Below, in pieces: positions 747 to 53,755 of a DNA stretch of 64,000 bases (positions are counted from its first letter, which is position 1; each line of letters begins with the position of its first letter). This DNA comes from a virus. A model generated the notes under the pieces. The model did no database searches. It saw only the letters and a program-made list of their open reading frames with translations, and was not told the origin of the DNA. The stretch spans positions 1 to 64,000 of IMG/VR virus record IMGVR_UViG_3300017917_005108. One strand, 5' to 3'. Position numbers and translations under genes: made by a program.

Positions 747-1757
747 ATGGCGAAGAAAGCTTTGGTCACAGGTATAACAGGTCAAGATGGGTCCTATTTA
801 GCAGAATTACTCTTAGAAAAAGGTTATGAAGTGCATGGTCTTATAAGAAGGTCTTCATCTTTTAATACAGATAGAATAGAACACCTCTATAGGGACAAAC
901 ATCAAAAAGATACTAAACTATTTTTACATTATGGGGATTTAAGTGATAGTAATGTGCTAATAAAATTGCTGGAAAAGATAAAACCTGATGAAATTTATAA
1001 TTTAGGTGCACAGAGTCATGTAAGAGTTAGCTTTGATATCCCTGAATATACAGGTGATGTTACAGGATTGGGTACAATTAGATTTTTAGATGCTATTTTA
1101 AATGTGTGCCCAACTGCAAAGTTTTATCAAGCCTCTAGTTCTGAAATGTTTGGTTTAGTTCAAGAAGTTCCACAAAGAGAAACAACACCTTTTTATCCAA
1201 GAAGTCCTTACGGTGCAGCCAAAGTATATTCTTACTGGATTACAGTTAATTATAGAGAAAGCTATGATTTGTTTGCTTGTAATGGTATTCTTTTTAACCA
1301 TGAAAGCCCTAGGAGAGGTGAAACCTTTGTTACACGTAAGATTACACGTGCTATAGCAAGAATTAAAGCAGGGTTGCAGGATAAACTATATCTTGGTAAT
1401 TTAGATGCAAAAAGAGATTGGGGTTATGCAAAAGATTATGTAGAAGCAATGTGGTTAATGTTGCAACAAGATAAGCCTGATGACTATGTTATTTCTACAA
1501 ATGAAACACATAGTGTGAGAGAGTTCTGTGAAAAAGCATTTGGTTATGCAGGGTTAGATTGGCAAAAATATGTTGCTTTTGATCCGGCTTATTTAAGACC
1601 TGCAGAAGTAGACTTATTAATAGGTGATTATTCAAAAGCAAAAAAACAGCTTGGATGGGAACCCAGGGTTAAGTTTGATGAATTAGTTAAAATTATGGTA
1701 GATGCTGATATTAATCAATTATCTAAAGAAATGTCTGGTAATAGCATTAGAATTTAA
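747..1757 (+). CDS. gmd: GDP-mannose 4,6-dehydratase
   Basis: [52 protein letters not shown] motifs. Confidence 0.97.
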
Positions 1758-1981
1758 ACGTTTTTATCTACTATATCATCTATTCCATCTTTATTCTTAT
1801 CCTTAAATGATAGAGGATCTCTAACAAATATTTCTTTAGCGTTAAGAAATTCTTCACTTAATTCTTCATCTTTATCTAATATTATTTCATTATGGTTTTT
1901 TTTATACTGTATGAATTTTAATATCAACAGGCCTGCAGAGCTTATTAACATTAATACTAAGCTTATCTCTAAAATATTCAC
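1754..1981 (-). CDS. Small membrane protein with C-terminal DKNKDGIDD (Ca-binding-like) motif
   Basis: N-terminal hydrophobic helix; TAAATA-N5-GTG start. Confidence 0.6.
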
Positions 1982-2046
1982 TATAATATTTATTCGGAGG
2001 TAAATAACATAATTGAATATCTAATTATAGGTAATAAATTTTAAAA

Positions 2047-3291
2047 GTGAAGATATTTGTACAGTTTGCTTCTTATAGAGATCCACAATTAGTACCAACA
2101 ATAGAAGATATGCTTGAAAAAGCTTATTACAAAGACATTTTTAATTTTGGTATATGTTGGCAGTATGGTGAAGATGAGGATACTACAAAGTATGATGGTA
2201 AAAGTAATTTTAGAATAAAAAAGCATCATTTTGATGAAAGTGGCGGTCTTGGGTGGGCAAGAAATATAACAAATCAGCTTTATAATGGTGAAGAATTAAC
2301 TTTACAATTAGATTCACATCATAGATTTGAAAAAGACTGGGATAAAGCTATGCTTGAGGATTACGAGCAAGCAAAAGGCATGGCAGAAAAGCCAATTATT
2401 TCAACGTATTGTACACCTTGGGAGCCTGATAAAAACATCTTTAACCCAACACCTTGTTTAATGTCTCAATATGAGTTTAGCAATGATAAATTATTAATGA
2501 GCAGACCTTATTATATTGGTGATTATAAATCTAGAAATAAAGTTATTAAAGCTAGAACATTATCAGGTCATTTCTTTTTAGTAGATGGTAAATTTATTTC
2601 TGAAGTACCTTATGATCCTGAGATATATTTCGGTGGATATACAGAAGAGACAACAATGAGTGTAAGAGCATTTACAAATGGTTATGATTTTTTTAGCCCA
2701 TATAGACAGTTAATATGGCATGAATATACCAGAAATTATAGAAAGAAGCATTGGGAAGATCATGGTACACAATCTAAAACAAAAAAGACAAGCGGTGAAA
2801 GAGATGTATATGCAAGAAACAAGACAAGACAAATGTTTGGTCAAGAACAACACAATATAGATATGAAAAGTTATGGATTAGGATCAGTGCGCTCCTTACA
2901 TGACTATGAAGTATATGGTGGGTTTGATTTTAAGAACTGCTTAATTCAAGAATATACTTTAAAAGTACAAGAGCCGCCAAACCCTTCAGATTGGGAGCAG
3001 CAGTTTATTACAAATGAATATAAAATGCAGGCTTTATGGGATAATACTAAAGTAAACAAAAAAGACAAAAAGCTGCAGTTTGTTGCAATTGGATTTTTAA
3101 ATAAATCTGGTATAGAGTTAAAAAGAGTAGATCTTAATCAGCAAAATGATCCAGAAGTTATAGTATCTGCAAAAAACAATTATATAACAGAATTAAAGAC
3201 AAAGGATAAGCCTGAAAAATGGGTTCTTCATCCTTACTATGAGGGTGAAGGTTGGGGTGAGCGTCAGGAAGGTTCTATTAAATTCTTATAA
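2047..3291 (+). CDS. GT60-like (Skp1-hydroxyproline / polypeptide GlcNAc transferase family) glycosyltransferase
   Basis: IFVQFASYRD, GLGWAR, LQLDSHHRFEKDWD, EVPYDP..F.G..EE..MSVRAFTNGYD motifs typical of the GlcNAc (PF11397-type) family. Confidence 0.8.
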   Translation: MKIFVQFASYRDPQLVPTIEDMLEKAYYKDIFNFGICWQYGEDEDTTKYDGKSNFRIKKHHFDESGGLGWARNITNQLYNGEELTLQLDSHHRFEKDWDKAMLEDYEQAKGMAEKPIISTYCTPWEPDKNIFNPTPCLMSQYEFSNDKLLMSRPYYIGDYKSRNKVIKARTLSGHFFLVDGKFISEVPYDPEIYFGGYTEETTMSVRAFTNGYDFFSPYRQLIWHEYTRNYRKKHWEDHGTQSKTKKTSGERDVYARNKTRQMFGQEQHNIDMKSYGLGSVRSLHDYEVYGGFDFKNCLIQEYTLKVQEPPNPSDWEQQFITNEYKMQALWDNTKVNKKDKKLQFVAIGFLNKSGIELKRVDLNQQNDPEVIVSAKNNYITELKTKDKPEKWVLHPYYEGEGWGERQEGSIKFL

Positions 3292-3994
3292 AATGGTAAT
3301 CAGCATCAGGTCCGTTACCACAGAAATACCTTTCTCTACATTCAGAAAAGATAACTGTTGGGTCAACCAATTTAAAGCCTAATGATTCAATAAAAGGAAT
3401 ACTTTCATTAACTTGCTTAGCCCCTAAATTGTACTCAACATGCTGTAATTCAATAATTAAGTGTTTTGTGTCTTTTAGGGTATTCCTCATACCATTTAAA
3501 ATATCAATCTCAGCTCCTTGTACATCTATTTTAACAAAATCAGGCAGTGGAAAATTTTTCTGTAATACTGCAGTATCAATAGTGGTAGTAATTCTTTTTG
3601 ATTCGTGCTCTTTATCATATATCTTTTCTGCAGCAGGTGAAAATTTTGAATTTTCCTTGTAATAGGAATTACCACCAAGGTAAAGAGGGTGTTCATAAAA
3701 TGTTACTTCGTTATTATCTTGATTACTAAAAACTCCCAACTGATAATCTATTCCATAATCTTTATAAAAATCTTCTACTTCTCTTAAAGCTTCAAATGCA
3801 ATAATTTTTGCATTTGGCCATAGTGTTTTAGCGTTTTTTGCCCAATGAAGAACCGCTGAACCTATATCATATATAACTGTTGGTTCAAAGTTTAAAATAT
3901 TTTTAATACCTTGTAAGTAATCTATACTTTTTTGTGGTATATTACCATCTTTATGTAACGTTTTATAATAATGTGTTAAATTACTATCTATCAT
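3278..3994 (-). CDS. FkbM-family SAM methyltransferase
   Basis: VIYDIGS, IIAFEA, PDFVKIDVQGAEIDILNG, LIIEL. Confidence 0.85.
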   Translation of the reverse strand: MIDSNLTHYYKTLHKDGNIPQKSIDYLQGIKNILNFEPTVIYDIGSAVLHWAKNAKTLWPNAKIIAFEALREVEDFYKDYGIDYQLGVFSNQDNNEVTFYEHPLYLGGNSYYKENSKFSPAAEKIYDKEHESKRITTTIDTAVLQKNFPLPDFVKIDVQGAEIDILNGMRNTLKDTKHLIIELQHVEYNLGAKQVNESIPFIESLGFKLVDPTVIFSECRERYFCGNGPDADYHFIRI

Positions 3995-5169
3995 AAGAAA
4001 TTATTTAAAAAGCTTTCCCACATAGAGCCAATTTTATTTAAATTAAATTTGTCTAATACATATTCTCTACCTTTTATTTGTTTCTCTTCTTTTAAATTAG
4101 GATTATCTTCTAAAAACTTAATTTTATCTACTATGTTTGATGTTATTTTAAACTTACCTTCATAATCTTTAGAGAGAGGCTCCGCTTGCATTTTTTGAAC
4201 ATCAACCCCTTCTGGAAAATCTAACCAATGACACAATCCATCAAAATTTTCTGGTAATGCTCCCAAAGGATATGTTAATACAGATGTACCTAGCGCTAGT
4301 GCTTCTGCAACTACACAAGAGAAGGTATCCTTATGTACATCCTGGTATGGTGTATATAGAGGGTAAATAAAATATTCACTTTCTGCTAAATGGTGAAATA
4401 GAGTTTCCTTATCTACACCATTATGAATGTGAAAAAAATCATCTTGATGTGCATGAATTACCATTAGATAGTCAAACGCATGAAATTCTTTATCAGGATA
4501 GGGCAAACGTCTAACAGATTCAATCGCTACATTACCTCCTCTTGGCCAAGAAGCATGAAAAATAAACTTATGTTTTTTTCTTTGAATGTTTTTAGACAAT
4601 GTCTTAGTTATTATCTCATCAAAAACAGGATTAGGTATCAATGATCTCTCTGTAGGTACTTTAACATTATTAAATATTGCCTGAACTATAGGCTCTGTAC
4701 AACTCTTTTCCCAATTAGAAATATTAACTATTCCTAATTTTAGGTTATGTTTATTTACATAATTAATAATTTCACCCATTCCATATAACCACTGCATGTG
4801 ACACCAGTAAATTAAACCTTTGGTTATGGTAACTGGAAGGTTTTCATAATTATGAAACCAAAGACTATTAACTAAAATATCAAAAGTTTTGTTTTCAACA
4901 TTTTCAAACTTAAAGTTTGAATAAGTAACACCATTAGAAACTGTTCCCCATTGAAATGTACTGCCATTTTTTCTTAAATTATTTTCTAACTGAGGTTCTA
5001 ATTCATCTGAAACAATAACTACTTCGTGCCCCTTAGATGCGAGATGTTCTGCAACTAAAATAGTACTTGTATCAGTTCCTGAAGCTCCTCCCCCACCGTT
5101 TCTAATAGTATCTCCAGTAAGGTAGTTGCTTCTCCTACTGTTTCCTAGGAGCGTGAATAATATTCTCAC
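3991..5169 (-). CDS. GT4-like (GT-B) glycosyltransferase
   Basis: LVAEHLASKGHEV; FHASWPRG; FIYP...DTFSCVVAEALALG...YPLGALPE. Confidence 0.8.
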   Translation of the reverse strand: MRILFTLLGNSRRSNYLTGDTIRNGGGGASGTDTSTILVAEHLASKGHEVVIVSDELEPQLENNLRKNGSTFQWGTVSNGVTYSNFKFENVENKTFDILVNSLWFHNYENLPVTITKGLIYWCHMQWLYGMGEIINYVNKHNLKLGIVNISNWEKSCTEPIVQAIFNNVKVPTERSLIPNPVFDEIITKTLSKNIQRKKHKFIFHASWPRGGNVAIESVRRLPYPDKEFHAFDYLMVIHAHQDDFFHIHNGVDKETLFHHLAESEYFIYPLYTPYQDVHKDTFSCVVAEALALGTSVLTYPLGALPENFDGLCHWLDFPEGVDVQKMQAEPLSKDYEGKFKITSNIVDKIKFLEDNPNLKEEKQIKGREYVLDKFNLNKIGSMWESFLNNFL

Positions 5170-5529
5170 TTATTTTAAAGTTAAAAGATACTTTAATCTG
5201 TTTAAAACAGCTTTCATTTCATCTCGGATATTAAGAAGATCGCTATCTTTATTATTATCAAACTCATTAGAAAGATTATCCAGAAAATCTATTCCGCTAT
5301 CTATAAATCCTATATAATCGGGGTCAAAATTTGATAGAGTTATATTATACTTTAGTTTTGCTTTTGGCTTACCGTATTTACCAGAATATACCTCTACAAA
5401 CTCATCAACTAAATCATTTAAATCTTCATATGCTTTACCAAAGGCTTTATGCTGAGCGTATGTATCTGATTGCCAATGAAATATACGTAATTGTTCTACA
5501 AGAGAGATAAAAGGGTTTATTAACGTCAC
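5170..5529 (-). CDS. DUF5856-like ferritin/Dps-like protein
   Basis: LRIFHWQS..YAQHKAFG..Y..L.DLVDEFVEVY...DLLNIRDEM...KYLLTL. Confidence 0.75.
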   Translation of the reverse strand: MTLINPFISLVEQLRIFHWQSDTYAQHKAFGKAYEDLNDLVDEFVEVYSGKYGKPKAKLKYNITLSNFDPDYIGFIDSGIDFLDNLSNEFDNNKDSDLLNIRDEMKAVLNRLKYLLTLK

Positions 5530-5884: not shown

Positions 5885-5888
5885 GTTG

Positions 5889-8112: not shown

Positions 8113-8292
8113 TTATTTTTTTAATATTTTATTTATATAACGCGACTTTAAATTTGTAATAGCGCACTGAGAGCATTTTGTTTGATTTAATTTTTCTAAA
8201 TCTTTCTTATAATCTTCTCTTAATTGTTCGCAATTTGGAATTTCGTTTGGGCAAGGTTTTGTATCATCAAAAAACAGAGCTAAAATATTCAT
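8113..8292 (-). CDS. Four-Cys mini-protein (59 aa, absent from ORF track); paralog of N-terminus of 20618..21088
   Basis: MNILALFFDDTKPCPNEIPNCEQLREDYKKDLEKLNQTKCSQCAITNLKSRYINKILKK; abuts upstream stop. Confidence 0.75.
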   Translation of the reverse strand: MNILALFFDDTKPCPNEIPNCEQLREDYKKDLEKLNQTKCSQCAITNLKSRYINKILKK

Positions 8293-8996: not shown

Positions 8997-9854
8997 ATGG
9001 TAAATTGCGATAAAGAGTATTTGATTGTTGTAGGTGACAGTAATAGTTATGGTTCAGAATCAATAGTAGATGGGGATATGGACAGTAGAGAAAATATAAA
9101 CAATTGTTATGGATTTTTTTTAGCAGAAAAATTAGGTATTAAAAAAGAAAATTATCATAATTTGTCTTTACCGGGAGCATCTAATCTCTATATAAGTAAA
9201 AAGGTAACAGAATCTTTAGCCTATTTTGAAGAGAAAAATATAGATTTTAGTAAATTGTTAGTAATTGTTGGTTGGTCAGAGCCAACTAGAACAACTATTA
9301 CATTTCCCGGGGAAAAAACAGCTCAAGTTTCCCTATTTCTTTATAACTTATTCTATAAAGTAACTCTTACAGAGCTGTTAACTAAAAAAAGCAAGACTCC
9401 TAAATCAGTTGAGTTTGAATATGATAAAGAGATATACAAAAAATATCTCTCAAAGTGTAAGGAATATCCCTATTATGAGTCTCTTATTAAAGGACTAGGA
9501 TTATATTTTCTAAACTCTGATCTTGCTTTATATCAGGATTTAATCTTAAGACGTGGTGTTGTGGGTATACTTGAAAATAAAGGTATTAATTATTTTTCTT
9601 TTCCTACAATAAGAGAGATTTATTTTAAAAACTACTTTGATATAATTAATACTTTCTCTATTAAAAATAATATATTTACTTTTAAAAAAAATAAGTACTT
9701 TTTTAACTCAAAAAGCCATGCATTAAATTTTTGTTTTTTTGAAAAATTTAGTAAGTTCGGAAGAAGTTCTGTTGCAGGGCACCTAAAGCGTGAAGCGCAT
9801 AATGAGGTTGCAGAGTTTATTTTTAATGAGCTTAGAGCTAGAAAAATTATTTAA
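8997..9854 (+). CDS. SGNH/GDSL-like hydrolase or acyltransferase
   Basis: VVGDSNSYG, NLSLPGASN, VIVGWS, C-terminal GHL...H. Confidence 0.7.
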   Translation: MVNCDKEYLIVVGDSNSYGSESIVDGDMDSRENINNCYGFFLAEKLGIKKENYHNLSLPGASNLYISKKVTESLAYFEEKNIDFSKLLVIVGWSEPTRTTITFPGEKTAQVSLFLYNLFYKVTLTELLTKKSKTPKSVEFEYDKEIYKKYLSKCKEYPYYESLIKGLGLYFLNSDLALYQDLILRRGVVGILENKGINYFSFPTIREIYFKNYFDIINTFSIKNNIFTFKKNKYFFNSKSHALNFCFFEKFSKFGRSSVAGHLKREAHNEVAEFIFNELRARKII

Positions 9855-27683: not shown

Positions 27684-27684
27684 A

Positions 27685-28377: not shown

Positions 28378-28408
28378 TGAAATTATTTATTAAAAATACT
28401 CTATTTCA

Positions 28409-31755: not shown

Positions 31756-31789
31756 ATTATTATTTACTATTCAAGTTAGATACAACTAC

Positions 31790-34232: not shown

Positions 34233-34240
34233 ATTATTAT

Positions 34241-39510: not shown

Positions 39511-39562
39511 TTAATTATTTAATTTTATATTATATTATCCAATATATAAATACATCTTTATG

Positions 39563-44100: not shown

Positions 44101-45246
44101 TGCTAAATTATCTAAATTTAGTGAAGTCAGGGAACAATTTAATGCTGATAAATTTCTAAGCTTAAAAGAAGATGGGTAGTTATTAAAATTTATTTCAGTT
44201 ATAGGATTACAAGATACATCAAGTGTTTCAAGTGCAGATAATGCTGATAGACCTATAATAATGTTTAAAGAACTTAAAGAACCAACAGGAGAAGAAAAAT
44301 AATTATAGCCGCCTACATCTAAATACTGTAATGCTGTTAGACCTGTTACATTAAGTGATGTCAGAGGATTGGTATTCAGATACAAGTATTGTAGAGCAGG
44401 TAAATTTATTAGAACAGGATCAGTAATTAAGTTACCATTTGTTAATCCAAGATTATAGTAAGTAATTGGATCGTACCCACGGCGATCACCGAGGTGTAAA
44501 TAACTCAAAGTAGGTATGTTTTGTAATACAAAAGAAGTTAGCTGGTTGTTATTACAGAAAAGATATCGCAAACTGCTCAAAGGCCCAGTAAAATTAAATG
44601 AGCTTAATCTACTAGTGTAATTGGAATAGATGTTATGAGGCCCTAGATTTAAAGATGCAATACCACTAAGAGCTCTGGTATCAGATAGTGTAAAGTCTAA
44701 TACTTTTAATGGTGTTCTACCTATATCTAATGAAAATAAGCTACAATTATTAAATTTAAATGCACTAAGATAAGAGCTGTCTAGATTAAGGTAAGATAAT
44801 TTAGTACCACTTAAATTAACATACTGATATGATCCATTGCGTATGTCTAGACTAAAGAGGTTTTGTAGTCCTATAACTCTGATGCCTGATATACCGCCTG
44901 TCCATGTGTAGAAATTATATAAAGAAGCATTTTCCCTTAGATCTGCTTCAAACAATGTATTGTTCCCTGCTCCATGAAATGTCACCAGGTTAGGAAATAA
45001 TCTGAAATCTAAATATGTAAGAGACTGCTGAAATGGTAGTTCATAAAGTCCGCTGTATAAATCTGTTACTAAAGCCAATCTAGGTGAAGTGTTTTCAATG
45101 TAAAGTGTATTGTTACCGACGTTTAAGCCTTCTTTTTGCACATAATAATCAGTGCCAGAGAGTAAAGGAGGGTATGGTACAAAAAAAGCAGATATACTAC
45201 TTGTTTGATTGTTATTGCTTGCGGTTGCTGCTCTTACCCATGCCAT
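41140..45246 (-). CDS. Giant LRR protein with MBG-like and L-type lectin-like domains
   Basis: LxxLxLxxNxLTSL repeats; FVYTGSPK...GSYTVSAV...NYSGSAT; GEGFCV...LGIGFD. Confidence 0.8.
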   Translation of the reverse strand: MAWVRAATASNNNQTSSISAFFVPYPPLLSGTDYYVQKEGLNVGNNTLYIENTSPRLALVTDLYSGLYELPFQQSLTYLDFRLFPNLVTFHGAGNNTLFEADLRENASLYNFYTWTGGISGIRVIGLQNLFSLDIRNGSYQYVNLSGTKLSYLNLDSSYLSAFKFNNCSLFSLDIGRTPLKVLDFTLSDTRALSGIASLNLGPHNIYSNYTSRLSSFNFTGPLSSLRYLFCNNNQLTSFVLQNIPTLSYLHLGDRRGYDPITYYNLGLTNGNLITDPVLINLPALQYLYLNTNPLTSLNVTGLTALQYLDVGGYNYFSSPVGSLSSLNIIIGLSALSALETLDVSCNPITEINFNNYPSSFKLRNLSALNCSLTSLNLDNLADSLTALNLFNSQSLSSLDISSLSALKFLDLGATSNLRSLILPAIPNNLENIAFTNSRFITSFNYNTLNNLISLTLNSYSLSSVQLAGLSALKYFNCRTSAPEIDLTKGLSSIDTLVFTGNVHLSAVKTENNYFASLTSITFDSFFFTRYNNSLSAFTLTGAPVLKTIYMDGSPLKNINIKNNPQLNYFYFLSIQSSNKFVDFSNCYNLNQIYYYGPINSIDFTNCTVLSSIFLYYTNLTSLPTLPGTMERINVYYHNISSINFSNYPVLNYLVFGGGDANSITLSNLPNLAYLSLNNNGLTSFDFTGSVNLSSVNISNNRLREINNFTVLHKCSGITEFTANTNQLSSINLSAFSSLIYFQAFTNYLSTINLNYSKNITNLQIQDNNISTLDLTPLTGLEYIHCEYNNLTSINVLTSTKISYEAYVNNNLLDSESIDALFYSLCAGGAYIYDYTNNKTGRSSYSNQQYTHMSTQGVVLYPDEPNNTVSQPVPKISIVQPSLPATLQYTQTLDLSATASYLGNRLQTFYTVLSGPGKTLSPTVSALSGTGTITVLVSSLSTTVFAPATALFDITLTRLDISNFIQFTNTSFVYTGSPKSVSAFSPSYPGVGLLTYYLSSGSFVTPIETGSYTVSAVSVNGNYSGSATTTMTIYPTGFYTLPVSAKSTLIYSTSGFDTRKDIVITFDYAFYGSTTQAGEGFCVSLIGYTPIVSGGAPGYGLNYTNANYLSTNSTGGAAFINYNGLYSGILGIGFDSTGNFGTSSYGVTGLPTSVSNSITLRGGFYDNYQVITRTNSLSSFDNPISIYQQITGTDLPVYRRIRIRFCDLGKRVIVQQKELSARDFSTYLDYNFGDLTPNAVRPCLSYSSGLTAATLKIKNFNINGYFNNDYSTPVEPTTFDSSIQIPISGGVVGYYGVSFASLYQSDILSYDNKYPTDLPLTMDIYINNAFVATVNFDPIYLGQKFTYFKFNTQTNYEGIFAPGSVQVL

Positions 45247-45252
45247 AAAAAA

Positions 45253-48200
45253 TTAGAAAGTTAGTTCTCCTCCGGTTAGAGTTGGCGTATCACCTATTAC
45301 AACAAAAGTGCTGTAATTTAATAAATTAGTTGGATTACTAAAATTGTTGTGTATTGTTCCTATATTTGGTCTATACATACTACTTTGTATATTAGTTAAT
45401 ATACCGTTAAAGTATTTAAAGTCTGTTACAAATGCATAAAACATATTAGTTGTATCTTTGGCAAGATAGGTAATACTATATATATTTGTTTCAGAATTTA
45501 AAGTCATAATAGGCTTGTCTATAGTAATAATATCAATGTTCTGGTTAGTACCTGTTAGACTAAACTGTACTACGTCAAGATAGTTTACATCTGCAAGCTT
45601 TTTGTAAGGGTAGAGCTGTACTAAACTAAATGTGTTTAAATTTAAAGAATATATAACAGGATATATTGATTTAAAGTTTGAAGCACTAGCTATAGGGTGT
45701 AGTGTTGTTTTTGCAAAAATAAGTTCATTATTCTTTTCATCAAACCAAACAGTGGAAAACTTTTCAAATTCTTTATTAATACCTCTTTCTACATAGGTTT
45801 CGTTATTAGAAGGTGTCCTGACATTATTAGTGGAATAATTAAAATCAATTTTATCAAAAATTAAATGATTTTCTGTTTCAACTTGTAATGTATCATAATA
45901 TACATCAAAATTAATAACACAGTTATTAACCTCTTCTCTTATATGTTGAGGGTATTTTATAAAAATGCTTGAAAGTGCAGAAGAAACTGGTTCTATTAGA
46001 GAAGAATTAGAATTTCTCATATAAAAATCTCCATATGTAGAATATCTAGTATTGTAAATAGAAACTTTACCTGAGGAGCCTGTTAAAGTAGGTACATATT
46101 CAGTTTCTCTATTTTGTAGTCTGATATTAAAGAAATTACTAGGTAATGTAAAATCAGGCTCCTGTGTAAATTGATCATTACAGGGAGTAAATTGATCGGT
46201 AAAACTACTTACAACAAAATAATAACCTAGATATTGTGGTAAAGCAGAAGCTGGGGGTTCAAATGTAAATGAAGCTGCATATGCAAATGTGGGTCTATAA
46301 TCAGGTGCAATAGGATTAGCTCCTGCATCTACAAGCTCATCATAAAAAGTTGGTGTTACATTAGGTACAAATGAGGGGTTATCAGTGCAGGGATCAACTA
46401 ATAAAGTTCCATTTGGTGAGATAAAAGAAAATCCGTCTTTAACATAGCAAATAATTGTAGTTTTAACTATTTCTGAACAAAATCTTTCTGGTTGAAATGC
46501 ATAGGATGCAATGTTATAAGGTGAACCAGAAAGAGCAAATTCTGGTATACCGTCTGTGTACTGTGTTGCTGAAAGCGGTGATATTGCAGTAAGAGATCCA
46601 GAATAAACAAAATAACCTGATCCTGGAGGATAGTTATTAGTTGTTCTTAATATAACACCAGAATAATTTTTTAAAGCATTAATTTCTGTATAATCAAAAT
46701 TAAATCCTGATACAACATCATAAAAAACATGTCCATCTATTATTAAACAATCTTTATCTGTTAAAAGACTACCACTATTTGAGTATGCAGATAAAATACC
46801 GGAAGTGTTTTTAAAGTCACCAGTAATTTTGTATAAACCATAATCATTACCATAGACATCTGATTTAAATTGAACTAATGTTTTGTTAAGTGAAAGTAAT
46901 TTTTCAAGTCTTAAATCTATTGGGTATTGGTTAACAGGGTGGAGAGGATATATATCATCATTTGCCCAAGTATCTTTTTTATAATTTTTAAAAAATTCTT
47001 GAGGGTCTATATATCTAGATAATCCTTGATTAGAAAATGTTATGCTTTGCTCTCTGCTTTGATATCCTCTAAAAGTATGTAATAGAGGGTCACTTTTAAC
47101 ATCGCCGAATTTATAGCCGTTTGTATAATCTATTTGAGTAAAGCTATTATCTTCTATAAAAATTAAGGGTGACTCTTGATCTTGCTGTGTATTACCTGAG
47201 ATATTTCCAAATTTACTTGGATCTGGAAAAATATAAACAGTGTTGGGTGTTAAAGTAGAAACACTTACTGTTGAAGTAAAATTAAAATTATAAAAATTAA
47301 GTAGCCCTAATTTATCTGGTTTAAAAAACAATCCTTGTGCTTTTGGTGTTTTTAAAAGACTTTCTTCGGGTACAAATGCTACAGTTGGAGAAGTTTTATT
47401 TAAATAGTTTGCAAATGGGCTCTCTGCTTTAAATAAAATACCAGAGGTAATATTTGTAACTGTATTTCCGGTTGATACATAATAAAAATCTGTACCCATG
47501 TATTTTTTTGTAACTTCTTTAAGTAAGCTTAGCCTTAAATTATTTTGACTATTATTGTTTATATTATTAATAAAGTCTCTATCTTTAAGAAAGTTTAATT
47601 GGGTTGAATTAATTGTTGGTGTAATAGAGAAATTATTTGTACCTAATTCAACTAAAAAGAATGGGTAGCTTGTGATTGCATTTACTATAGATTTGTCAAA
47701 ATTTAAATAATAATTTGCATCTATATCTAGTAAATTAAGAACAAATTCAGTATTTCGTAATCCTGTTGCCCCGTAGGCTGATGCGGGTAAAGTACCTAAA
47801 TCAAAATAGCTAGAATTATTATCATATAGTTCTTCTAACTCTACTATTATGTTATTTCTTACTGCAGAGGGAGTAATATTTAGAGTTTGAATTAGTTCAG
47901 TTAAATCTTGTGCTTCTAAACTTTTTGATATTTCATTGTAGATTAGTTTTTCTACGCCGTATATACTACCCTTTAGGTTATACTCAACAGCGCTAAACTT
48001 TGCTTTATCACGTAAAGTAGAGAAATATATACAAATATCCTTTATTTTTTTAGCAAAAAATGGAACTGCAATAGCTAAGTCTCTAGGGCTGTTTTTATCT
48101 ATATTTTGTAAGAATCTTCTTTCATCAATAGATGAATAATTTAAAACTATTTCTGTTATAAAGTCTTTATATAATTCGGTAATAGCATCAGAAGATGCTT

Positions 48201-48411
48201 GAGGCGCATAATCTTTAGCTTCAAACCAATTATTAAGATAATTGTTATATCTTTGAAATAATTCTTCTGTACTTAGGGATAAGGTACCGTTATATTTTAA
48301 CCAGTCTATAAATGATATAGGTGTTGTTCTATCAATTGGAAATTCAACTAATGTGTCTTTAGTAATAGAATTATCTAATTTTTCATCTACAAATCTATTA
48401 ACATCTGGCAT
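45253..48411 (-). CDS. Large putative virion structural protein
   Basis: 1052 aa within baseplate/tail run; TAAATA-N5-ATG. Confidence 0.6.
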   Translation of the reverse strand: MPDVNRFVDEKLDNSITKDTLVEFPIDRTTPISFIDWLKYNGTLSLSTEELFQRYNNYLNNWFEAKDYAPQASSDAITELYKDFITEIVLNYSSIDERRFLQNIDKNSPRDLAIAVPFFAKKIKDICIYFSTLRDKAKFSAVEYNLKGSIYGVEKLIYNEISKSLEAQDLTELIQTLNITPSAVRNNIIVELEELYDNNSSYFDLGTLPASAYGATGLRNTEFVLNLLDIDANYYLNFDKSIVNAITSYPFFLVELGTNNFSITPTINSTQLNFLKDRDFINNINNNSQNNLRLSLLKEVTKKYMGTDFYYVSTGNTVTNITSGILFKAESPFANYLNKTSPTVAFVPEESLLKTPKAQGLFFKPDKLGLLNFYNFNFTSTVSVSTLTPNTVYIFPDPSKFGNISGNTQQDQESPLIFIEDNSFTQIDYTNGYKFGDVKSDPLLHTFRGYQSREQSITFSNQGLSRYIDPQEFFKNYKKDTWANDDIYPLHPVNQYPIDLRLEKLLSLNKTLVQFKSDVYGNDYGLYKITGDFKNTSGILSAYSNSGSLLTDKDCLIIDGHVFYDVVSGFNFDYTEINALKNYSGVILRTTNNYPPGSGYFVYSGSLTAISPLSATQYTDGIPEFALSGSPYNIASYAFQPERFCSEIVKTTIICYVKDGFSFISPNGTLLVDPCTDNPSFVPNVTPTFYDELVDAGANPIAPDYRPTFAYAASFTFEPPASALPQYLGYYFVVSSFTDQFTPCNDQFTQEPDFTLPSNFFNIRLQNRETEYVPTLTGSSGKVSIYNTRYSTYGDFYMRNSNSSLIEPVSSALSSIFIKYPQHIREEVNNCVINFDVYYDTLQVETENHLIFDKIDFNYSTNNVRTPSNNETYVERGINKEFEKFSTVWFDEKNNELIFAKTTLHPIASASNFKSIYPVIYSLNLNTFSLVQLYPYKKLADVNYLDVVQFSLTGTNQNIDIITIDKPIMTLNSETNIYSITYLAKDTTNMFYAFVTDFKYFNGILTNIQSSMYRPNIGTIHNNFSNPTNLLNYSTFVVIGDTPTLTGGELTF

Positions 48412-48419
48412 TGAATTAT

Positions 48420-51400
48420 TTAATTATTGTATACAATATCAACAGTATTAGTAAATAGCTTTAAGCCTTTAGTTAGCTCATAACTTAAAATATTTTGCAT
48501 GATTCCGTTATTCTTTGACCAGTCTTTATAAGAGCTTAATGTGGGAGACAGTAGATTAATTGGGTCATTCCAATTTAAAATATTGTTATAGAAAGAGTTT
48601 TCAGTAATATCATTAAATTGATAGAAGGAATAATAATTTTTAATATTTATACCAGTAAGACTCTTAGGCGCTACTAAGCCCCAGCCCCAGTCATACGTGT
48701 ATGAACTTAAAGGTAATATATCTCCTAAATTATAGCCTTTGATATTAGATGTGTTTACTATTGTATAAAGGTCAGAGAAGAGCTCTAAAGCTACTATAGA
48801 TTTTCCAGAAATAATAGTACCTGACAATACATTTATTTGATTGCCTAAATTTATTCCATATTTTGAGCTATTAATATATCCTTTTTTATCAAAATTTCTA
48901 TTAAACGTATTTCTATCACCCCAAAGTATTTTGTGTTTTATTGATAAAAGATCTACAAGTCTTCTTAATTGAGGTGGAAAGGGATAATTATATTCCTCAA
49001 ACTGTAGACTTAACTCATCGCAAAAAGATAGAAGTTTATCTAAATTGCATTTATCTATATCTGAGTTGTTGGAAACAAAGTTTGCTGTTTTTTCATATAC
49101 TACTTTTCCCAACTCATAAGGTTGAGCACTAATGCTGCCTACTATTGTGCTTAAAAAATTATCAAAAAACATTTTTTTATTAAAAAGAACTTCTTGATAT
49201 CTTAAATCTTTATAAAAATTACCAGCATCAAAATCTTCATTTATTTTTGTAACGTTATATTTACCGGTAGAAGGATATACGTTAAAAAGCGCAGACTCGC
49301 CAGATAGATATCTTGTAACATTAAAAGGAACCATATATTTGTTAATCCATCTTGATCCAATCCAATCACCGTAGGCCTGGAATATTCTTTCTTGGAAAGC
49401 AGATACGGGATTAGATGTTGAATCTGGAGGAAACTCTAAAGTAATACTGTCAACACCTGCAATAGAAGACATGCTTTCGTTAGTAGTGTCAACATAATAC
49501 AATTTGTTTTCAAAATTGTTTATTACCCAAAGATAATTTGCAGTATCACATGCAATACCACCTATACTACCTATATAGTTTGTTGTGTTAACACCGGAAC
49601 CGCCAGGAAAAGAAGTAACTTTTTGAGGATTATTTGCATCTAGCTTTATTATTGTTTCTCTATCATTAACAACATAAGCATTTTGTGCACCATCAACAGT
49701 TATATTGCCTGCTAGTCTAAACCCTGTAAGAGGATATCCTGTGAGAAGGTTACCGTCTTTATCAAACTTATATACAAAATCATTTTTACCTGTTAAAGAA
49801 ACAGAAGGTGAAACAGGATAATTCATATTTAAAGTAGTAAGCCATACATAATTGTTTCTATCAACACAAATTTCTACCGGGGATATTAAACTTGGAAATG
49901 GTATTACTTTTATAAAATTACCTGTATCATCAAATTTAAATAAAAAGTTTGATATTGGATGTGTATAAGCAACCCATATATTATTTTGTGTATCGGTATC
50001 TATAGATGCAGGTAGTAAAGTATTTTCACCAGCAAATCCACTTAGGGGAGCTAAATTGTAATCAGAACTTAAAGCATACACCAGATTTTTATACATAGGT
50101 ACAGCAACAGATTTTGCTTGTCCTGTATATCTATCAATTTTTATTGATGAGACTGCATCAAAAAGTGTAAACCATACATCGCTATTACCGTCCATAACAA
50201 TACTCGCAGGAGCAGCGCTAGATAGTTCTGTTGATCTAAGATCAACATAGTAGGTAGAGTTGTATCCTGAAAAAGGATATGAAGATAAATTAAATGCAGA
50301 GAGAATTCCGCCGTAAATATCAATTTTATAAATTTTATCTGCTTGTCCGTCTGCTACCCATGTTCTATAGTCTTCACCAAACCCTGCTCCAGATGGTGCA
50401 ACTTGAAATGAATAGCTTTCAACACTTCCAGGTGTATCATAATCTGATACATAGGCTGAAAGAAACTCTTCCATTGTACCATCACAGTAATTAAAGTTTC
50501 TAGTTTTAAAAATACGTTTTACCTTGAAGTATTGTGGCATAGATACCCATCCTACTAAACTATCTTTAGGAAAGTTTACCGGGTCAACAACAGTCATGCC
50601 AGCAGTTAATAATAAATTCTCACTGCTAATATGAGGAATAAAATATCCTTTATAAAATCCACCAATGCTTCTTGGTATATCAACAGAAAAATCACTATAA
50701 AAGCTTACTGCAGATATACAGGTGCGAGTTAAGTCATTATTTTGCTTTACTAAGCTTATGGCTAAATCATAAGAAGTGACATTTTGCGCAAGAGTTTCAA
50801 TTGTAGATGATGATAGAGGTGGATATGTTTTTGTAGTATAATTTTCAAAATCTTTCATTCTAATAACAAAAGGTATCTCAGTATACTGCCAACTAATTTC
50901 AGGAATGTTAAAGTTAGTTGCTGACAAAGCACCTTCGCCATCAATACCATTGGAAGTAATGCTCAGTCTACCTGCAGAATTATGTCTAACTTTAATAATA
51001 GGTAGACATGCGGGGTCTAGTTGCTGAAAACCGTAAGGCGGATATCCAACGTAGTCTTGTATGCTAGTAACCATGGAGTATGCATCTTTAAATTTTGCAT
51101 TGTCAAAAGTAGCAAAAATTAAAATTGGCGGTTCTCTTGTAGTGTAATTTTTTGTTCTATCATCAACATAATAAAATTCTGCATATCCGGTGGTACCGGC
51201 AAACCTAGATCCAGTGTCATTCTCTTGACACTGTTGAATATTGTTATTAACTATGTTTGCGTATATTTTTGTATCTTTTGTTATCACTTTATCAACTATT
51301 ACAAATTCATCAAAATCTCCTATTTTTTGAACTTCATAAAGTCGTGACAAACTTCTTAAATGACTCCATTTGTCTCTAATAAAAGAATTATAATCAATAT

Positions 51401-51893
51401 AGTCTCCAGCTGCTCCAGAAGCATAAAGATTTAATGTATATCCTTCTGCACTTAAAGCTCTATAGGACTGCCAACTATTTTGACGTTGTATTGTGAGAGG
51501 CTCTATAATTCTACTAGCTGGTACGTCATATATAAAACGTTTAAAATCTTTGAACCCTAATTTATCTGCAACAAAGTCGTAAATTGCAATGGTTGGTTGA
51601 TAACTAGAATCGTATGCATTACCATAGCTGTCAAATATAACAAGCTTCGGTTTATAAAAACCGGGGAATTTATAATGATGAGTAGCTGTTAAATCGTTTG
51701 AGTAAGTTCCATCACCAAAATGCCATTCAATTTTTTTATTACTAATAACTGTAGATCCGGTTAATAATGGAGAAGAAGTAAAATCAGGAATAAAAGTTAT
51801 AGGTGTTATATCAAGAGAATATGAAGAAAGGGTATTATTTCCTGAGTAATCTCTAGTATAAAAATAGAGATATGTGTAGTTTAAAGATTCCAT
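48420..51893 (-). CDS. Baseplate-associated protein with PKD domain and beta-propeller
   Basis: IEWHFGDG...HHYKFPGFY; DxxNxVW repeats; directly after gp6-like gene. Confidence 0.7.
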   Translation of the reverse strand: MESLNYTYLYFYTRDYSGNNTLSSYSLDITPITFIPDFTSSPLLTGSTVISNKKIEWHFGDGTYSNDLTATHHYKFPGFYKPKLVIFDSYGNAYDSSYQPTIAIYDFVADKLGFKDFKRFIYDVPASRIIEPLTIQRQNSWQSYRALSAEGYTLNLYASGAAGDYIDYNSFIRDKWSHLRSLSRLYEVQKIGDFDEFVIVDKVITKDTKIYANIVNNNIQQCQENDTGSRFAGTTGYAEFYYVDDRTKNYTTREPPILIFATFDNAKFKDAYSMVTSIQDYVGYPPYGFQQLDPACLPIIKVRHNSAGRLSITSNGIDGEGALSATNFNIPEISWQYTEIPFVIRMKDFENYTTKTYPPLSSSTIETLAQNVTSYDLAISLVKQNNDLTRTCISAVSFYSDFSVDIPRSIGGFYKGYFIPHISSENLLLTAGMTVVDPVNFPKDSLVGWVSMPQYFKVKRIFKTRNFNYCDGTMEEFLSAYVSDYDTPGSVESYSFQVAPSGAGFGEDYRTWVADGQADKIYKIDIYGGILSAFNLSSYPFSGYNSTYYVDLRSTELSSAAPASIVMDGNSDVWFTLFDAVSSIKIDRYTGQAKSVAVPMYKNLVYALSSDYNLAPLSGFAGENTLLPASIDTDTQNNIWVAYTHPISNFLFKFDDTGNFIKVIPFPSLISPVEICVDRNNYVWLTTLNMNYPVSPSVSLTGKNDFVYKFDKDGNLLTGYPLTGFRLAGNITVDGAQNAYVVNDRETIIKLDANNPQKVTSFPGGSGVNTTNYIGSIGGIACDTANYLWVINNFENKLYYVDTTNESMSSIAGVDSITLEFPPDSTSNPVSAFQERIFQAYGDWIGSRWINKYMVPFNVTRYLSGESALFNVYPSTGKYNVTKINEDFDAGNFYKDLRYQEVLFNKKMFFDNFLSTIVGSISAQPYELGKVVYEKTANFVSNNSDIDKCNLDKLLSFCDELSLQFEEYNYPFPPQLRRLVDLLSIKHKILWGDRNTFNRNFDKKGYINSSKYGINLGNQINVLSGTIISGKSIVALELFSDLYTIVNTSNIKGYNLGDILPLSSYTYDWGWGLVAPKSLTGINIKNYYSFYQFNDITENSFYNNILNWNDPINLLSPTLSSYKDWSKNNGIMQNILSYELTKGLKLFTNTVDIVYNN

Positions 51894-53755
51894 TAGAACT
51901 CTCTTTCAAAATACTGAATGGAAGGGGTTATAACATTTATTTTGTTTATAAAATCTAATTGATTATTTAAAAATGGAAATTTAAAAAATGGCAGTGCAGT
52001 GTCTTGTGTGATAATCTGTATATCATCATAAGGATACACTGGGTTATATACTAGTAAGCTAACCCCTGGTGTTTCTATTTGATTACCATCTATATTTTTT
52101 ACTGTTTTAATATCCTGTACTCCTTCAATTGCTCTTATTTGATTTGTAATGTCGGTTAGTGATATAGATAATCCAAGATTATCTTTTGTAGTTGAAAAAT
52201 AATTTTGAAATATTTGACTTATTTGTTTTTTAATAGTTTCAGGATTTCTTTTAGCTGTTACTGTGCGTGTTATCTGTAAAAAGGTATTATTAGATAACTC
52301 CGGAGTTAATTCTTCACCGGAAGCTCTTAGACCTAAATCAACTAATACATAAACTGGATCAGTTACAACTAATTCAGCTGTTGCAAGTTTTACATTATTT
52401 AAATCATTTGTAATTAATTGCTTTTGTGCACTATTTAAGTAATTAGCTCTCGTGGTTAGTGAGGTAAGTTTTTCTAATTTTGGTACAGCATATATATAAA
52501 TGTTATTAAAATTACAAGTATCTGAAAACTTTACTTGGTTAAACAATACTCTCGATTCAATATCAGGTTTTTCAACACCAATATCAAAATAATATTTTAT
52601 ATGCTGGCTTAAAAAATCCCAGTTGTTGACAACTTTTACAGATGCTAAAATATTGCTATAGTTTTTAAGAAGATAATTAGTGAAGTCTTCTGAAGTTATA
52701 AGTCTATACTGACTTTTAAAGGTATTAATAGCATTTTGTTTGATGCTAGTTACAGATTCAGCTTCAACAAAATTAGTTGAGGGCTCGGGGTTAGAGAATG
52801 TTAGATAACCTGCTTGTGTTTGAGTTATTAACGTGAGATTTAAAGGAGTAGTATCAATCTGTATTTGTGAAAATCTTGAAGTATTATAAAAAAACAATTG
52901 ATTATTATCAAGCAAGCTATTGCTTATCTGTCCAGATGTTCCATCTGATTTTAGATAATAAATAGCAATTTCATCATTAGCATTAAGCATTTTACCGTTA
53001 ATGTTATTTCCAAATTTTATTTCATACCTGCCATTTTCGTTTAAACGAATTTCATATTTTAATGCATTTGATCTTTCTAAGAATAAAGATGCAGTTGGTT
53101 CATATTTAGCCCATTTTGGATTTTCTATAGTATTATCTTTTACGTAAACATCAACATTAAAATGATCAATTATTGTATTATTATTAGTTGAATCAACAGT
53201 AGTCATAGTAACTACTTCAAAAGGTTCTCCAGTAGCTATATAAGTTGGATATTCAGTATATGTGCCTTGATATAGTAAATACTGAGAAGAAAAATCTTCT
53301 AATACTTCTGTACCTGAAGTTGCTTTAGTAAATGAAATATCATTATTAAATGAGTAGTTTACTCCATTAACAGTAAAATAAGAATATCTTGGTATGGTAT
53401 ATGTTTCAGGTACTAATTGATCGGATGCTGTAGCTATAAATGGTAAAATAGCAGTTTGATAGCCTGTGGGGTTATAATTTATTAATTTTACAATTTTATT
53501 AATATTTTCATATAGCTCAGCGTTTGTAAAAGTGGCTTCTGAACTTGTTCTGTTGAGATAAAAAAGCAGTACATGATATGCATACGCAATTATATCAATT
53601 ATGGAAGATATATTGCTACCTTCAAAATTTTGATCAGTAAAAACAGTATTACTGTTTAGTCTTTTTATAATTAAATTTTTTAAAGAAAGAGCATCAAATG
53701 CAGCGTAGCCATCTACATTCAAATTAAAGTTGTTAAATGTGTTCTGTGTTGCCAT
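51893..53755 (-). CDS. Baseplate wedge subunit (T4 gp6-like)
   Basis: FTDQNFEGSNISSIIDIIAY, YEIKFGNNINGK, ESVTSIK...QYRLITSEDF. Confidence 0.88.
   Translation of the reverse strand: MATQNTFNNFNLNVDGYAAFDALSLKNLIIKRLNSNTVFTDQNFEGSNISSIIDIIAYAYHVLLFYLNRTSSEATFTNAELYENINKIVKLINYNPTGYQTAILPFIATASDQLVPETYTIPRYSYFTVNGVNYSFNNDISFTKATSGTEVLEDFSSQYLLYQGTYTEYPTYIATGEPFEVVTMTTVDSTNNNTIIDHFNVDVYVKDNTIENPKWAKYEPTASLFLERSNALKYEIRLNENGRYEIKFGNNINGKMLNANDEIAIYYLKSDGTSGQISNSLLDNNQLFFYNTSRFSQIQIDTTPLNLTLITQTQAGYLTFSNPEPSTNFVEAESVTSIKQNAINTFKSQYRLITSEDFTNYLLKNYSNILASVKVVNNWDFLSQHIKYYFDIGVEKPDIESRVLFNQVKFSDTCNFNNIYIYAVPKLEKLTSLTTRANYLNSAQKQLITNDLNNVKLATAELVVTDPVYVLVDLGLRASGEELTPELSNNTFLQITRTVTAKRNPETIKKQISQIFQNYFSTTKDNLGLSISLTDITNQIRAIEGVQDIKTVKNIDGNQIETPGVSLLVYNPVYPYDDIQIITQDTALPFFKFPFLNNQLDFINKINVITPSIQYFEREF

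Follow-up and report, generated by a model that had tools for sequence, protein, structure and literature searches.

Virion glycosylation is known from giant viruses and from mycobacteriophages, where other enzymes and sites are involved than those considered here (PMC12619734). The mycobacteriophage glycans, demonstrated by mass spectrometry, decorate the C-terminal ends of capsid and tail-tube subunits (Freeman et al. 2023, as covered in PMC12619734), and are added in the host cytoplasm by glycosyltransferases (GTs) that the phage itself encodes near the genes for its structural proteins (PMC12619734, PMC12801897). A comparable arrangement is proposed here for the initial 64 kb (64,000 nucleotides; hereafter the window) of the virus record IMGVR_UViG_3300017917_005108, where a GT60-like glycosyltransferase and further sugar-active enzymes are encoded in the same region as tail fibre proteins with Pro-Thr (PT) tracts. 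This uncultured phage differs from the system outlined in those sources in that glycans are predicted on internal (PT)n linkers of fibre and adhesin proteins rather than on C-termini, and in its transferase family, its host group and a far larger enzyme set. For the capsid glycans of chlorovirus PBCV-1 and the fibril glycans of mimivirus, both sugar-nucleotide synthesis and soluble transferases are virus-encoded and give rise to unusual methylated glycans on surface proteins of the virus itself, and the PT linkers of microbial cellulases are classic O-glycosylation sites, which gain stiffness and protease resistance. These are, however, eukaryotic viruses or secreted enzymes of cells, and their relation to the window is confined to shared CAZy families.

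The characterised members of CAZy family GT60 (PF11397) are polypeptide alpha-N-acetylglucosamine (GlcNAc) transferases, which start mucin-type chains in Trypanosoma cruzi and Dictyostelium, and the family is related to the animal GT27 polypeptide N-acetylgalactosaminyltransferases (ppGalNAc-Ts) (PMC8724618). TcOGNT1 produces GlcNAc-alpha-Thr, which is later extended with galactose (Gal) or galactofuranose (Galf) (PMC9472816). The phage enzyme shares the PF11397 family with the protist enzymes (TcOGNT1/2, the Dictyostelium mucin-type pp-alphaGlcNAcT and Skp1 Gnt1), as well as a GT-A fold nearest to that of the GT27 ppGalNAc-Ts, the lack of a ricin-type lectin domain (PMC8724618) and Thr/Pro-rich acceptor regions, which in the phage are predicted acceptors. 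Furthermore, the GT60, UDP-galactopyranose mutase (Glf) and fucosyltransferase genes of the phage echo the GlcNAc-alpha-Thr/Galf glycans of T. cruzi and the Fuc-Gal-GlcNAc chain of Skp1 (PMC9472816), and the phage enzyme is soluble, as is the cytoplasmic Gnt1. Unlike its protist counterparts, it is phage-encoded, with relatives in many bacteria, has no membrane anchor and carries a C-terminal beta-sandwich domain of its own, while its acceptors would be virion fibre linkers.

Marine T4-like phages carry clusters named for lipopolysaccharide (LPS) in the fibre region, which have been read as modifying the cell surface or O-chain of the host (Sullivan et al. 2005, PMC1079782; Zaragoza-Solas et al. 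2020, PMC7029224). The window resembles these pelagimyophage and cyanomyophage cassettes in the position of its enzymes beside the tail fibres of a T4-like marine or aquatic phage, and in the presence of GT8, UDP-glucose dehydrogenase, 2-oxoglutarate (2OG) oxygenases and radical S-adenosylmethionine (rSAM) cassettes. It differs in a specific neighbourhood link between GT60 and PT tracts, neither of which is remarked upon in those two studies, and in the late-type start signals on most of its tailoring genes.

On the basis of its core genes, the source record (162,497 bp; GC content 31 %; CheckV completeness 77 %) derives from a distant T4-like myovirus. The sheath, terminase, portal, capsid, gp41, UvsX, DNA polymerase and ribonucleotide reductase (RNR) share 25-53 % protein identity with those of Pelagibacter phage HTVC008M, the pelagimyophages being the nearest cultured relatives by these genes, and no nucleotide-level relatives emerged when 43 kb of the window was compared with 50,697 phage records by megablast. 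In this T4-like aquatic phage, the region (747-53755; coordinates refer to the window unless stated otherwise, with strand as + or -) represents the hypervariable fibre region, in which two separable enzyme modules lie beside the receptor-binding fibres. Its enzyme island (8-24 kb) abuts the fibre module and has a GC content of 24-26 %, as compared to 31 % across the genome. The reading favoured here, with a confidence slightly better than even, is that the first module (module A) glycosylates the phage's own fibre linkers, beside a second, separately distributed module (module B).

Association of a GT60-like glycosyltransferase with Pro-Thr tracts

The GT60-like protein (2047-3291, +) is a soluble GT-A transferase with a C-terminal beta-sandwich domain, which matches PF11397 with 189.6 bits (cut-off 21 bits) over profile positions 96-351 of 352. 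Its D89-S90-H91 motif is invariant among the eight closer homologues, with D89 and H91 conserved in at least 90 % of fourteen, while H225 is invariant in all fourteen aligned GT60 homologues. The best Foldseek matches of the AlphaFold model in the PDB are ppGalNAc-T2/4/10/12 (E 6e-8; TM-score about 0.41), and a sequence search of the PDB with the protein returned no matches. Transmembrane segments are absent from all of the island enzymes. The protein is proposed as the initiating polypeptide O-linked N-acetylhexosamine (HexNAc; here GlcNAc) transferase for the (PT)n linkers.

A profile search of IMG/VR recovered at least 585 GT60 relatives, the best eighty loci of which were analysed, with eighty rSAM-cassette loci (1.5 Mb) as controls. 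An open reading frame (ORF) with a run of Pro, Thr or Ser of at least 16 aa within 10 kb of GT60, here termed a PT-tract ORF, occurs in 45/80 GT60 loci and in 0/80 controls (Fisher p = 9e-18). In twenty-five loci the nearest such ORF immediately precedes GT60, being on the same strand in 24/25. Adjacency was observed in twenty-seven loci, where 9.0 would be expected by permutation of ORF positions, and a count of twenty-seven was reached in 0/20,000 permutations. The pattern is seen in 11/33 GT60 clusters at 70 % identity. The seventy-seven PT proteins near GT60 fall into thirty-two unrelated groups once the tracts are masked, and the association is therefore with the tract and not with one protein family.

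The reverse comparison gave a similar picture. When eighty loci picked solely for (PT)8-coding DNA were searched with all 205 proteins of the genome, the sole recurrent match was GT60 (7/80 by hidden Markov model, mostly 1-3 kb from the tract; controls 0/80). Whole-record searches located GT60 elsewhere in 4/9 further PT-bearing records and 0/5 control records, and GT60 was not found in HTVC008M. Two fibre proteins of the window also have homologues that adjoin GT60 in other phages: one of PT1098 (L234) and one, itself with a PT tract, of the protein encoded at 45253-48411 (L271). The original prediction had proposed co-occurrence of the island genes with PT/LSA-rich tails as a check; for PT tracts, such a tie exists in both directions for the GT60 module, but not for the rSAM cassette, the loci of which contain no PT tracts. 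A literature search found no description of phage GT60 or of glycosylated PT linkers on fibres.

Bacterial GT60 relatives were found in 486 loci of many phyla, with P/T/S-run ORFs nearby in 19/80, a soft count since these are high-GC genomes. The nearest homologue in prokaryote genome assemblies (54 % identity; L296) is located on a 16-kb contig binned with a metagenome-assembled genome of the Flavobacteriales (Cryomorphaceae). This contig may be phage-derived and may provide a weak hint to the host.

Fibre proteins with Pro-Thr linkers

The PT stalks described in the original prediction are present as (PT)n runs of 20-72 aa in four adjacent genes (32367-41125), the products of which combine matches to PHROG tail-fibre families with Pfam head domains. 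These are PT621 (32367-34232, -), PT658 (34241-36217, -; BspA-type leucine-rich repeat (LRR) and gp38 adhesin), PT1098 (36214-39510, -; ConA-like lectin and BNR propeller) and PT520 (39563-41125, -; RCC1 propeller), with late start signals (see below) at 34232 for PT621 and 39510 for PT1098. These four late fibre/adhesin proteins are the proposed acceptors. Within the whole record, PT tracts are confined to these four proteins and one 92-aa late protein. The latter is encoded at 154,060-154,338 of the record (+), distant from the fibre module, and has a 27-residue PT run and a late start signal of its own.

Further fibre genes located between the enzyme genes and the PT genes (26073-32356, -) encode an S74-chaperone fibre (PF13884), Mtd_N proteins (PF18454) and a tail-fibre PHROG member (phrog_24210), none of which contains a PT tract. 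Large baseplate-proximal structural proteins are encoded at 41140-53755 (-), among them a gp6-like wedge (51893-53755, -; phrog_219) and a 1368-aa protein (41140-45246) with LRR_4, LRR_EndoS and LRR_8 matches. A recurring Ser/Thr motif, the tripeptide LSA, had also been noted in the tail proteins. It is enriched there (29 occurrences, with 11 in the rest; 7.4-fold per residue), but 11/29 of the tail copies belong to the LRR protein, most of them in or beside the LRR region as part of an L-S-A-L repeat consensus. LSA was rejected as a Ser/Thr modification sequon, being largely LRR consensus.

Gene content of module A

The first gene of module A (747-1757, +) encodes a GDP-mannose 4,6-dehydratase (Gmd; PF16363, 501 bits; TIGR01472, 559 bits, above the equivalog cut-off of 415), which is predicted to supply a 6-deoxyhexose of the fucose/rhamnose type. 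Downstream of the GT60-like gene are an FkbM methyltransferase (3278-3994, -; PF05050, E 2.6e-15), with a probable role in sugar O-methylation, and a GT4-like GT-B transferase (3991-5169, -), the Pfam GT4/GT1 matches of which are weak and below the cut-offs (E 0.002). The GT4-like gene is itself located downstream of a DUF5856 gene (5170-5529). Homologues of the GT4-like protein (53-63 % identity) always follow GT60 in other phages, and are adjacent to it in 22/80 loci. In one of these phages, GT4-like and FkbM proteins are fused in a single 660-aa protein (L235:11217-13199, +), and a functional link between the two corresponding genes of the window can therefore be drawn.

Across phages, the recurring gene order is [PT protein]-GT60-GT4(-FkbM)-GT25-like-GT11-Glf. 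Homologues of GT11 and Glf, which are members of the conserved GT60 module elsewhere, are in this phage encoded outside the window, in a second glycosylation island (114,836-122,211 of the record) comprising a GT2-like protein, a GT11 fucosyltransferase, a GT10-like protein and Glf, together with four uncharacterised proteins of 250-290 aa. An RmlD-like reductase is encoded at 77.7 kb of the record. Two features are particular to this window, namely a split layout, in which 29 kb separate GT60 from its presumed substrates and 110 kb separate it from GT11 and Glf, and the presence of a six-gene rSAM island inside the same fibre region. A gene for a full-length Hsp70/DnaK (861 bits; L004:17547-19406, +) lies a few genes downstream of the GT60 module of a viral contig of 185 kb, between PT-tract proteins.

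Start-codon boxes and timing of expression

The sequence TAA[AG]TA ends 4-9 nt 5' of the start codon in 59-61 of the 205 genes, as compared to 1.15 % of all ATG/GTG triplets, and there is therefore no space for a ribosome-binding site. TAAATA precedes the genes for sheath, tube, portal, gp13, prohead protease, gp25 and terminase, while a TATAAT box is found 3-14 nt 5' of the genes for primase, gp41, UvsX, DNA polymerase and the RNR small subunit. The former (late) box was absent from every known early gene, and the two boxes therefore sort genes into classes. Late TAAATA boxes are mostly located 5-7 nt and early TATAAT boxes 3-14 nt from the start (for example at 26068, 28377, 34232, 39510 and 54236). 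Across the genome, no Shine-Dalgarno sequence occurs at box-bearing starts, where GTG start codons are frequent. As the boxes abut the start codons and Shine-Dalgarno sequences are lacking, most messenger RNAs would therefore be leaderless.

The late box was also claimed for several enzyme genes, and this is borne out for those encoding the PhyH-family oxygenase, rSAM1, rSAM4 (heading rSAM3 and rSAM2), rSAM5 and GT8 (heading an operon with a 156-aa protein and rSAM6). It furthermore precedes FkbM (7-nt spacing) and the DUF5856 gene at the head of the GT4-FkbM operon. This start signal, which was checked against genes of known late and early classes, supports late co-expression of GT4-FkbM, PhyH, GT8 and the rSAM operons. 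The suggestion of late co-expression does not extend to Gmd (TATAAT 11 nt 5' of the start), PIG-L or the nucleotide-sugar dehydrogenase with GT32 downstream, which have early-type boxes, as does Glf outside the window; neither box is clear for GT60, GT31 and the asparagine-synthase-like gene. The pattern is one of early precursor supply followed by late transferases and tailoring enzymes, which suits substrates present only late in infection and suits DNA modification poorly.

Proposed glycosylation of the fibre linkers and alternative roles

Module A, comprising Gmd, the GT60-like and GT4-like transferases and FkbM in the window, and the GT2-like, GT11, GT10-like and Glf proteins at 115-122 kb of the record, would constitute a cytoplasmic system of mucin-type protein O-glycosylation. 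The sugar-nucleotide enzymes would be produced early, from the TATAAT-type starts. The soluble GT60 would then add the initial HexNAc (by family, alpha-GlcNAc) to Thr, and possibly hydroxy-Pro, of the (PT)n linkers, which connect the anchor modules with the adhesin heads in the four fibre proteins. GT4 and the other transferases may lengthen the chain, the added sugars probably being Galf and fucose or another 6-deoxyhexose, after which FkbM would methylate the extended glycan. The likely gain is stiff, shielded and protease-resistant linkers on the virion. The sequences themselves show the identities of the genes, the PT tracts, the classes of start signal and the link between GT60 and PT tracts across phages; we infer the donor sugar, the acceptor residue, the order of the steps and the benefit of module A, as we do anything said below on the substrate of module B. 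The original prediction had seen in the enzymes and PT tails a glycosylation system encoded with its own substrates, and in the virions carriers of an elaborated glycan coat. For the GT60 module, this has a somewhat better than even chance of being right in kind, and such virions may carry glycans of this type; a system with its own substrates is supported for GT60 with GT4 and FkbM, while position and late boxes alone tie the enzymes of module B to the fibres.

Several observations weigh against glycosylation of the fibre linkers. The model of GT60 is of mediocre confidence (pLDDT 65), its gene does not have a canonical late box, and it lies 29 kb from the PT genes in this genome. Among the GT60 loci, 35/80 contain no PT ORF within 10 kb; the strict (PT)6 tract is absent in 3/4 GT60 records, and GT60 is absent from 5/9 PT-bearing records, three of these five being rated as 100 % complete by CheckV. 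The coupling between GT60 and PT tracts is thus statistical, not obligatory. As the control loci come from other phage lineages, part of the genome-level enrichment could be a lineage or host effect, a weakness of which the within-locus adjacency test is free. Module B is linked to the fibres by position and late boxes only, and its relatives elsewhere occur without GT60 or PT tracts. Furthermore, GT8, GT11, GT25, GT2, Gmd, Glf and UDP-sugar dehydrogenase are equally well known as families of O-antigen synthesis, and lipid-linked sugars can serve as acceptors for soluble transferases.

These last points bear on the possibility that the enzymes remodel the host surface, altering the O-antigen, LPS or capsule during infection with the use of the host lipid carrier, flippase and polymerase, for example for superinfection blocking or for preventing the re-adsorption of progeny to lysed cells. 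This is the published reading for glycosyltransferase/rSAM cassettes in the hypervariable fibre region (PMC1079782, PMC7029224), and in addition to the presence of the above families, including a GT25-like one, typical of O-antigen synthesis, a comparable sugar island occurs in HTVC008M. Surface remodelling leaves unexplained, however, why in many lineages GT60 immediately follows the genes of PT-tract proteins that are unrelated to one another, and why it is the one gene recovered from loci picked for PT tracts. In addition, the characterised GT60 enzymes use polypeptides (PMC8724618, PMC9472816), and the late signal of the structural genes precedes many transferase and tailoring genes, a timing that would be late for excluding superinfection. 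A hydropathy scan of the 162-kb record, which is 77 % complete, revealed no Wzx/Wzy/WecA-type multi-pass membrane protein, the only multi-pass candidate being the tape-measure-like protein. A role in remodelling the host surface is considered unlikely but retains appreciable weight, and is a reading mainly for module B, for which no tie to a protein acceptor was found.

The glycosylation of DNA has precedents in the glucosylation of hydroxymethylcytosine in T4 and the multi-sugar DNA glycans of metagenomic phages. DNA is a frequent target of phage glycosyltransferases (Pyle et al. 2024, as relayed in PMC12619734), and a dCMP deaminase, a dUTPase and a PD-(D/E)XK nuclease are encoded inside or near the island, so that the transferases and tailoring enzymes might be taken to place glycans on phage DNA bases. 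Such DNA hypermodification is regarded as highly improbable. A ThyA-family hydroxymethylase (PF00303), the enzyme that would generate the site of attachment, was found in 10/14 control genomes but not in the record, which is 77 % complete, and a separate 7-deazaguanine-type set is already present at 134.5-138 kb. There, QueF-like (265 bits), GMP-reductase-like and formyltransferase-like genes form one run (134,547-138,750 of the record; L293), which is consistent with a 7-deazaguanine DNA-modification set, while no DpdA-type gene was found with the Pfam TGT profile (PF01702). Enzymes that modify DNA would be required while it replicates, but many genes of the island are late, and both the GT60 family and the PT-tract neighbourhood point to protein as the acceptor.

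Module B and the radical SAM cassette

The original prediction combined all of these enzymes in one pathway. A unified pathway was rejected, as the modules are distributed independently: neither GT60 nor PT tracts were found in any of the eighty rSAM-cassette loci (0/80), nor rSAM genes in any of the eighty GT60 loci (0/80), and GT11 and Glf lie outside the window. Module B forms a second tailoring set, which appears mostly late-expressed and would comprise six rSAM enzymes (five of the N-terminal-twitch type), GT31, GT8, GT32, PIG-L, an asparagine-synthase (AsnB)-like protein and PhyH, with an SGNH protein and a PT-barrel protein as possible further members. Most plausibly, it makes or decorates an unusual sugar or glycan.

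The six rSAM enzymes of the original prediction are all accounted for. Three exceed the cut-off of 170 bits for NF033640, two fall below it and one is MoaA-like. The latter, rSAM1 (13640-14596, +; PF04055/PF13353; start moved from 13451), has a MoaA-like core, is not of the N-terminal-twitch type and is preceded by TAAGTA 5 nt 5' of its ATG. It lies back to back with the PhyH-family 2OG-Fe(II) oxygenase (12834-13592, -; PF05721, E 1.2e-12; TAAATA 7 nt 5' of a GTG start). The rSAM4-rSAM3-rSAM2 operon (14576-18313) has a single late box at its head (18313) and encodes three N-terminal-twitch enzymes with intact CX3CX2C motifs: rSAM4 (17072-18313, -; 229 bits), rSAM3 (15922-17079, -; 226 bits; model pLDDT 80) and rSAM2 (14576-15925, -; 147-148 bits, below the cut-off). 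Divergent from rSAM4 is rSAM5 (18363-19649, +; 202 bits), also N-terminal-twitch, with its own late box, while the atypical rSAM6 (19632-20621, -; partial match of 95 bits) has CX12CX2C where its paralogues have CX3CX2C. SPASM matches (Pfam) lie N-terminal to the core in rSAM2, rSAM3 and rSAM6, and rSAM4 and rSAM5 match NF033640 over their full length. The auxiliary Cys-rich domain before the CX3CX2C core is a feature which rSAM3, rSAM4 and rSAM5 share with the NF033640 family; to our knowledge, this family has no assigned reaction and no member with a known substrate. The window differs from NF033640 occurrences in general in having an array of five together with a MoaA-like rSAM inside an island of sugar enzymes, while arrays in other phages accompany a carbamoyltransferase and uncharacterised proteins.

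Five glycosyltransferases had been named for the region; GT60-like, GT31, GT8 and GT32 are identified by Pfam, and only the GT4 assignment is weak. GT31 (9851-10618, -; PF01762, E 1.4e-14) is soluble and galactosyltransferase/Fringe-like. GT8 (21085-21873, -; PF01501, E 1.1e-26) has its late box at the corrected start of 21873, and heads the operon 19632-21873, in the middle of which a 156-aa four-Cys protein is encoded (20618-21088, -). The GT32-type DXD transferase (22568-23326, -; PF04488/PF05704) follows the nucleotide-sugar dehydrogenase (23310-24095, -; PF00984/PF03721), and the two genes (22568-24095) are co-directional with the fibre genes. Sugar supply, as originally suggested, is represented by Gmd at equivalog level and by this dehydrogenase, albeit in a short form of 261 aa (TIGR03026 partial, 115 bits, positions 74-279 of 413). 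Short forms (264-287 aa) recur in other viral loci (L012, L055, L062 and L286), and the gene may accordingly not be broken but encode a truncated form that is conserved.

Among the tailoring enzymes, FkbM, PhyH and the PIG-L/LmbE-family de-N-acetylase (21924-22571, +; PF02585, E 2.9e-17; TATAAT 9 nt 5' of the start) are clear, while the SGNH and amide ligase assignments proved weak. The possible SGNH/GDSL esterase or acyltransferase (8997-9854, +) matches PF00657 below the cut-off (E 0.0095) and has homologues in 9/80 rSAM-cassette loci, and the asparagine-synthase-like glutamine amidotransferase (10703-12103, +; PF13537, E 1.8e-10; TIGR01536 partial, 79 bits, below the cut-off) matches asparagine synthase in its N-terminal half only. 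A 244-aa protein (12103-12837, +) has no Pfam or NCBIfam matches. Feature-based matches to the DUF5838/PTase_Orf2 clusters (0.87-0.91) suggest, as a lead only, that it possibly has a PT-barrel (ABBA prenyltransferase-like) fold. On either side of the rSAM array a four-Cys mini-domain (CP-x5-NC ... CxxC) is encoded, at 8113-8292 (-) and at the N-terminus of the protein encoded at 20618-21088 (-). The two are paralogous, and might represent either a peptide substrate or a small partner with metal or Fe-S.

Single-protein scans of IMG/VR with rSAM4, the 244-aa protein and GT8 recovered no related loci, and the co-occurrence of module B was therefore studied through the rSAM3 family alone. More than 509 relatives of this N-terminal-twitch family were found on viral contigs, the best eighty loci of which were analysed. 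They form co-directional arrays of one to eight copies (median of five paralogues), with a carbamoyltransferase in 45/80 loci, about eight conserved uncharacterised proteins, and a fibre-like protein upstream in 36/80. The only close relative of the version in the window among these loci is L014, which encodes PIG-L, two GT31 copies, three rSAM enzymes and, adjoining these, a homologue of the 244-aa protein. In a representative cassette (L073), Pfam and PHROGs name only the carbamoyltransferase and a virion-protein N-terminus, and most of the cassette proteins (L014-L093) belong to no family that is named in PHROGs v4. A tblastn search with rSAM3 against the 50,697 phage records gave no matches, and a literature search found nothing on N-terminal-twitch rSAM enzymes in viruses. 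Full-length structural relatives are encoded by numerous uncultured phages, and also by KVP40 and phi-pp2, which are cultured vibriophages.

In the fold search with the rSAM3 model, BlsE, SkfB, anSME, SuiB, CteB and viperins tie (Z 11-12), and sugar-nucleotide and peptide substrates are therefore not distinguished. Carbohydrate is the best guess for the substrate, because the neighbours are sugar-tailoring enzymes, namely glycosyltransferases, PIG-L, SGNH and FkbM in the window and carbamoyltransferase elsewhere. That the rSAM array acts jointly with GT31, GT8, GT32, PIG-L, the amidotransferase, the 2OG oxygenase and the possible PT-barrel enzyme in rewriting the virion glycans or the linker backbone, through C-methylation, epimerisation, deoxygenation or cross-links, is doubtful.

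The product of module B may also be a small molecule or modified peptide, such as a ribosomally synthesised and post-translationally modified peptide (RiPP) or an aminoglycoside-like pseudo-oligosaccharide, or there may be radical chemistry on the backbone of a virion protein. As a small molecule, made by the rSAM enzymes, the AsnB-like, PhyH and PT-barrel-like proteins and perhaps a glycosyltransferase and PIG-L, it would be used against competitors or the host. SPASM/twitch rSAM enzymes include many peptide maturases, with several of which rSAM3 ties (SkfB, anSME, SuiB and CteB). AsnB-like enzymes include lasso-peptide cyclases, although the match here is weak, and the PT-barrel lead and the two four-Cys mini-proteins flanking the array also count in favour. 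Likewise, GT4, PIG-L, a twitch rSAM and a carbamoyltransferase form the enzyme vocabulary of aminoglycoside pathways, and carbamoyltransferase is frequent in the phage rSAM cassettes (45/80, as above). The window yielded no precursor peptide, leader-recognition (RRE) domain, protease, exporter, 2-deoxy-scyllo-inosose synthase or aminotransferase, however; the neighbours are overwhelmingly sugar enzymes, the cassette lies beside fibre-like genes in other phages too, and the fold search leaves peptide- and nucleotide-sugar-acting enzymes unseparated. A small-molecule or peptide product, or radical chemistry on the virion protein backbone, is accordingly held to be improbable.

Implications for phage biology

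For two decades, the sugar islands that adjoin the fibre genes of marine T4-like phages have been interpreted as a means of changing the host surface. If module A acts as proposed, part of them would instead glycosylate the phage's own appendages, which would change the view of host range, of virion persistence in protease-rich water and of escape from surface-based defences. Mucin-type O-glycosylation, regarded as eukaryotic, would then extend to phages and many bacteria, with a simple sequence rule, namely a Pro-Thr tract adjoining a GT60 gene. If the rSAM enzymes rewrite virion glycans, a function would be provided for a cassette found in more than 500 viral contigs, as well as a class of virion post-translational modification without a described phage precedent. 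The structural relatives in KVP40 and phi-pp2 offer an experimental entry to the rSAM arrays, a large phage family for which no reaction is known.

Upstream of Gmd, the phage also encodes a transfer-messenger RNA (282-688, -; Rfam RF00023, 96 bits), for which ARAGORN predicts a tag of 33 residues ending in LELV instead of Ala-Ala.

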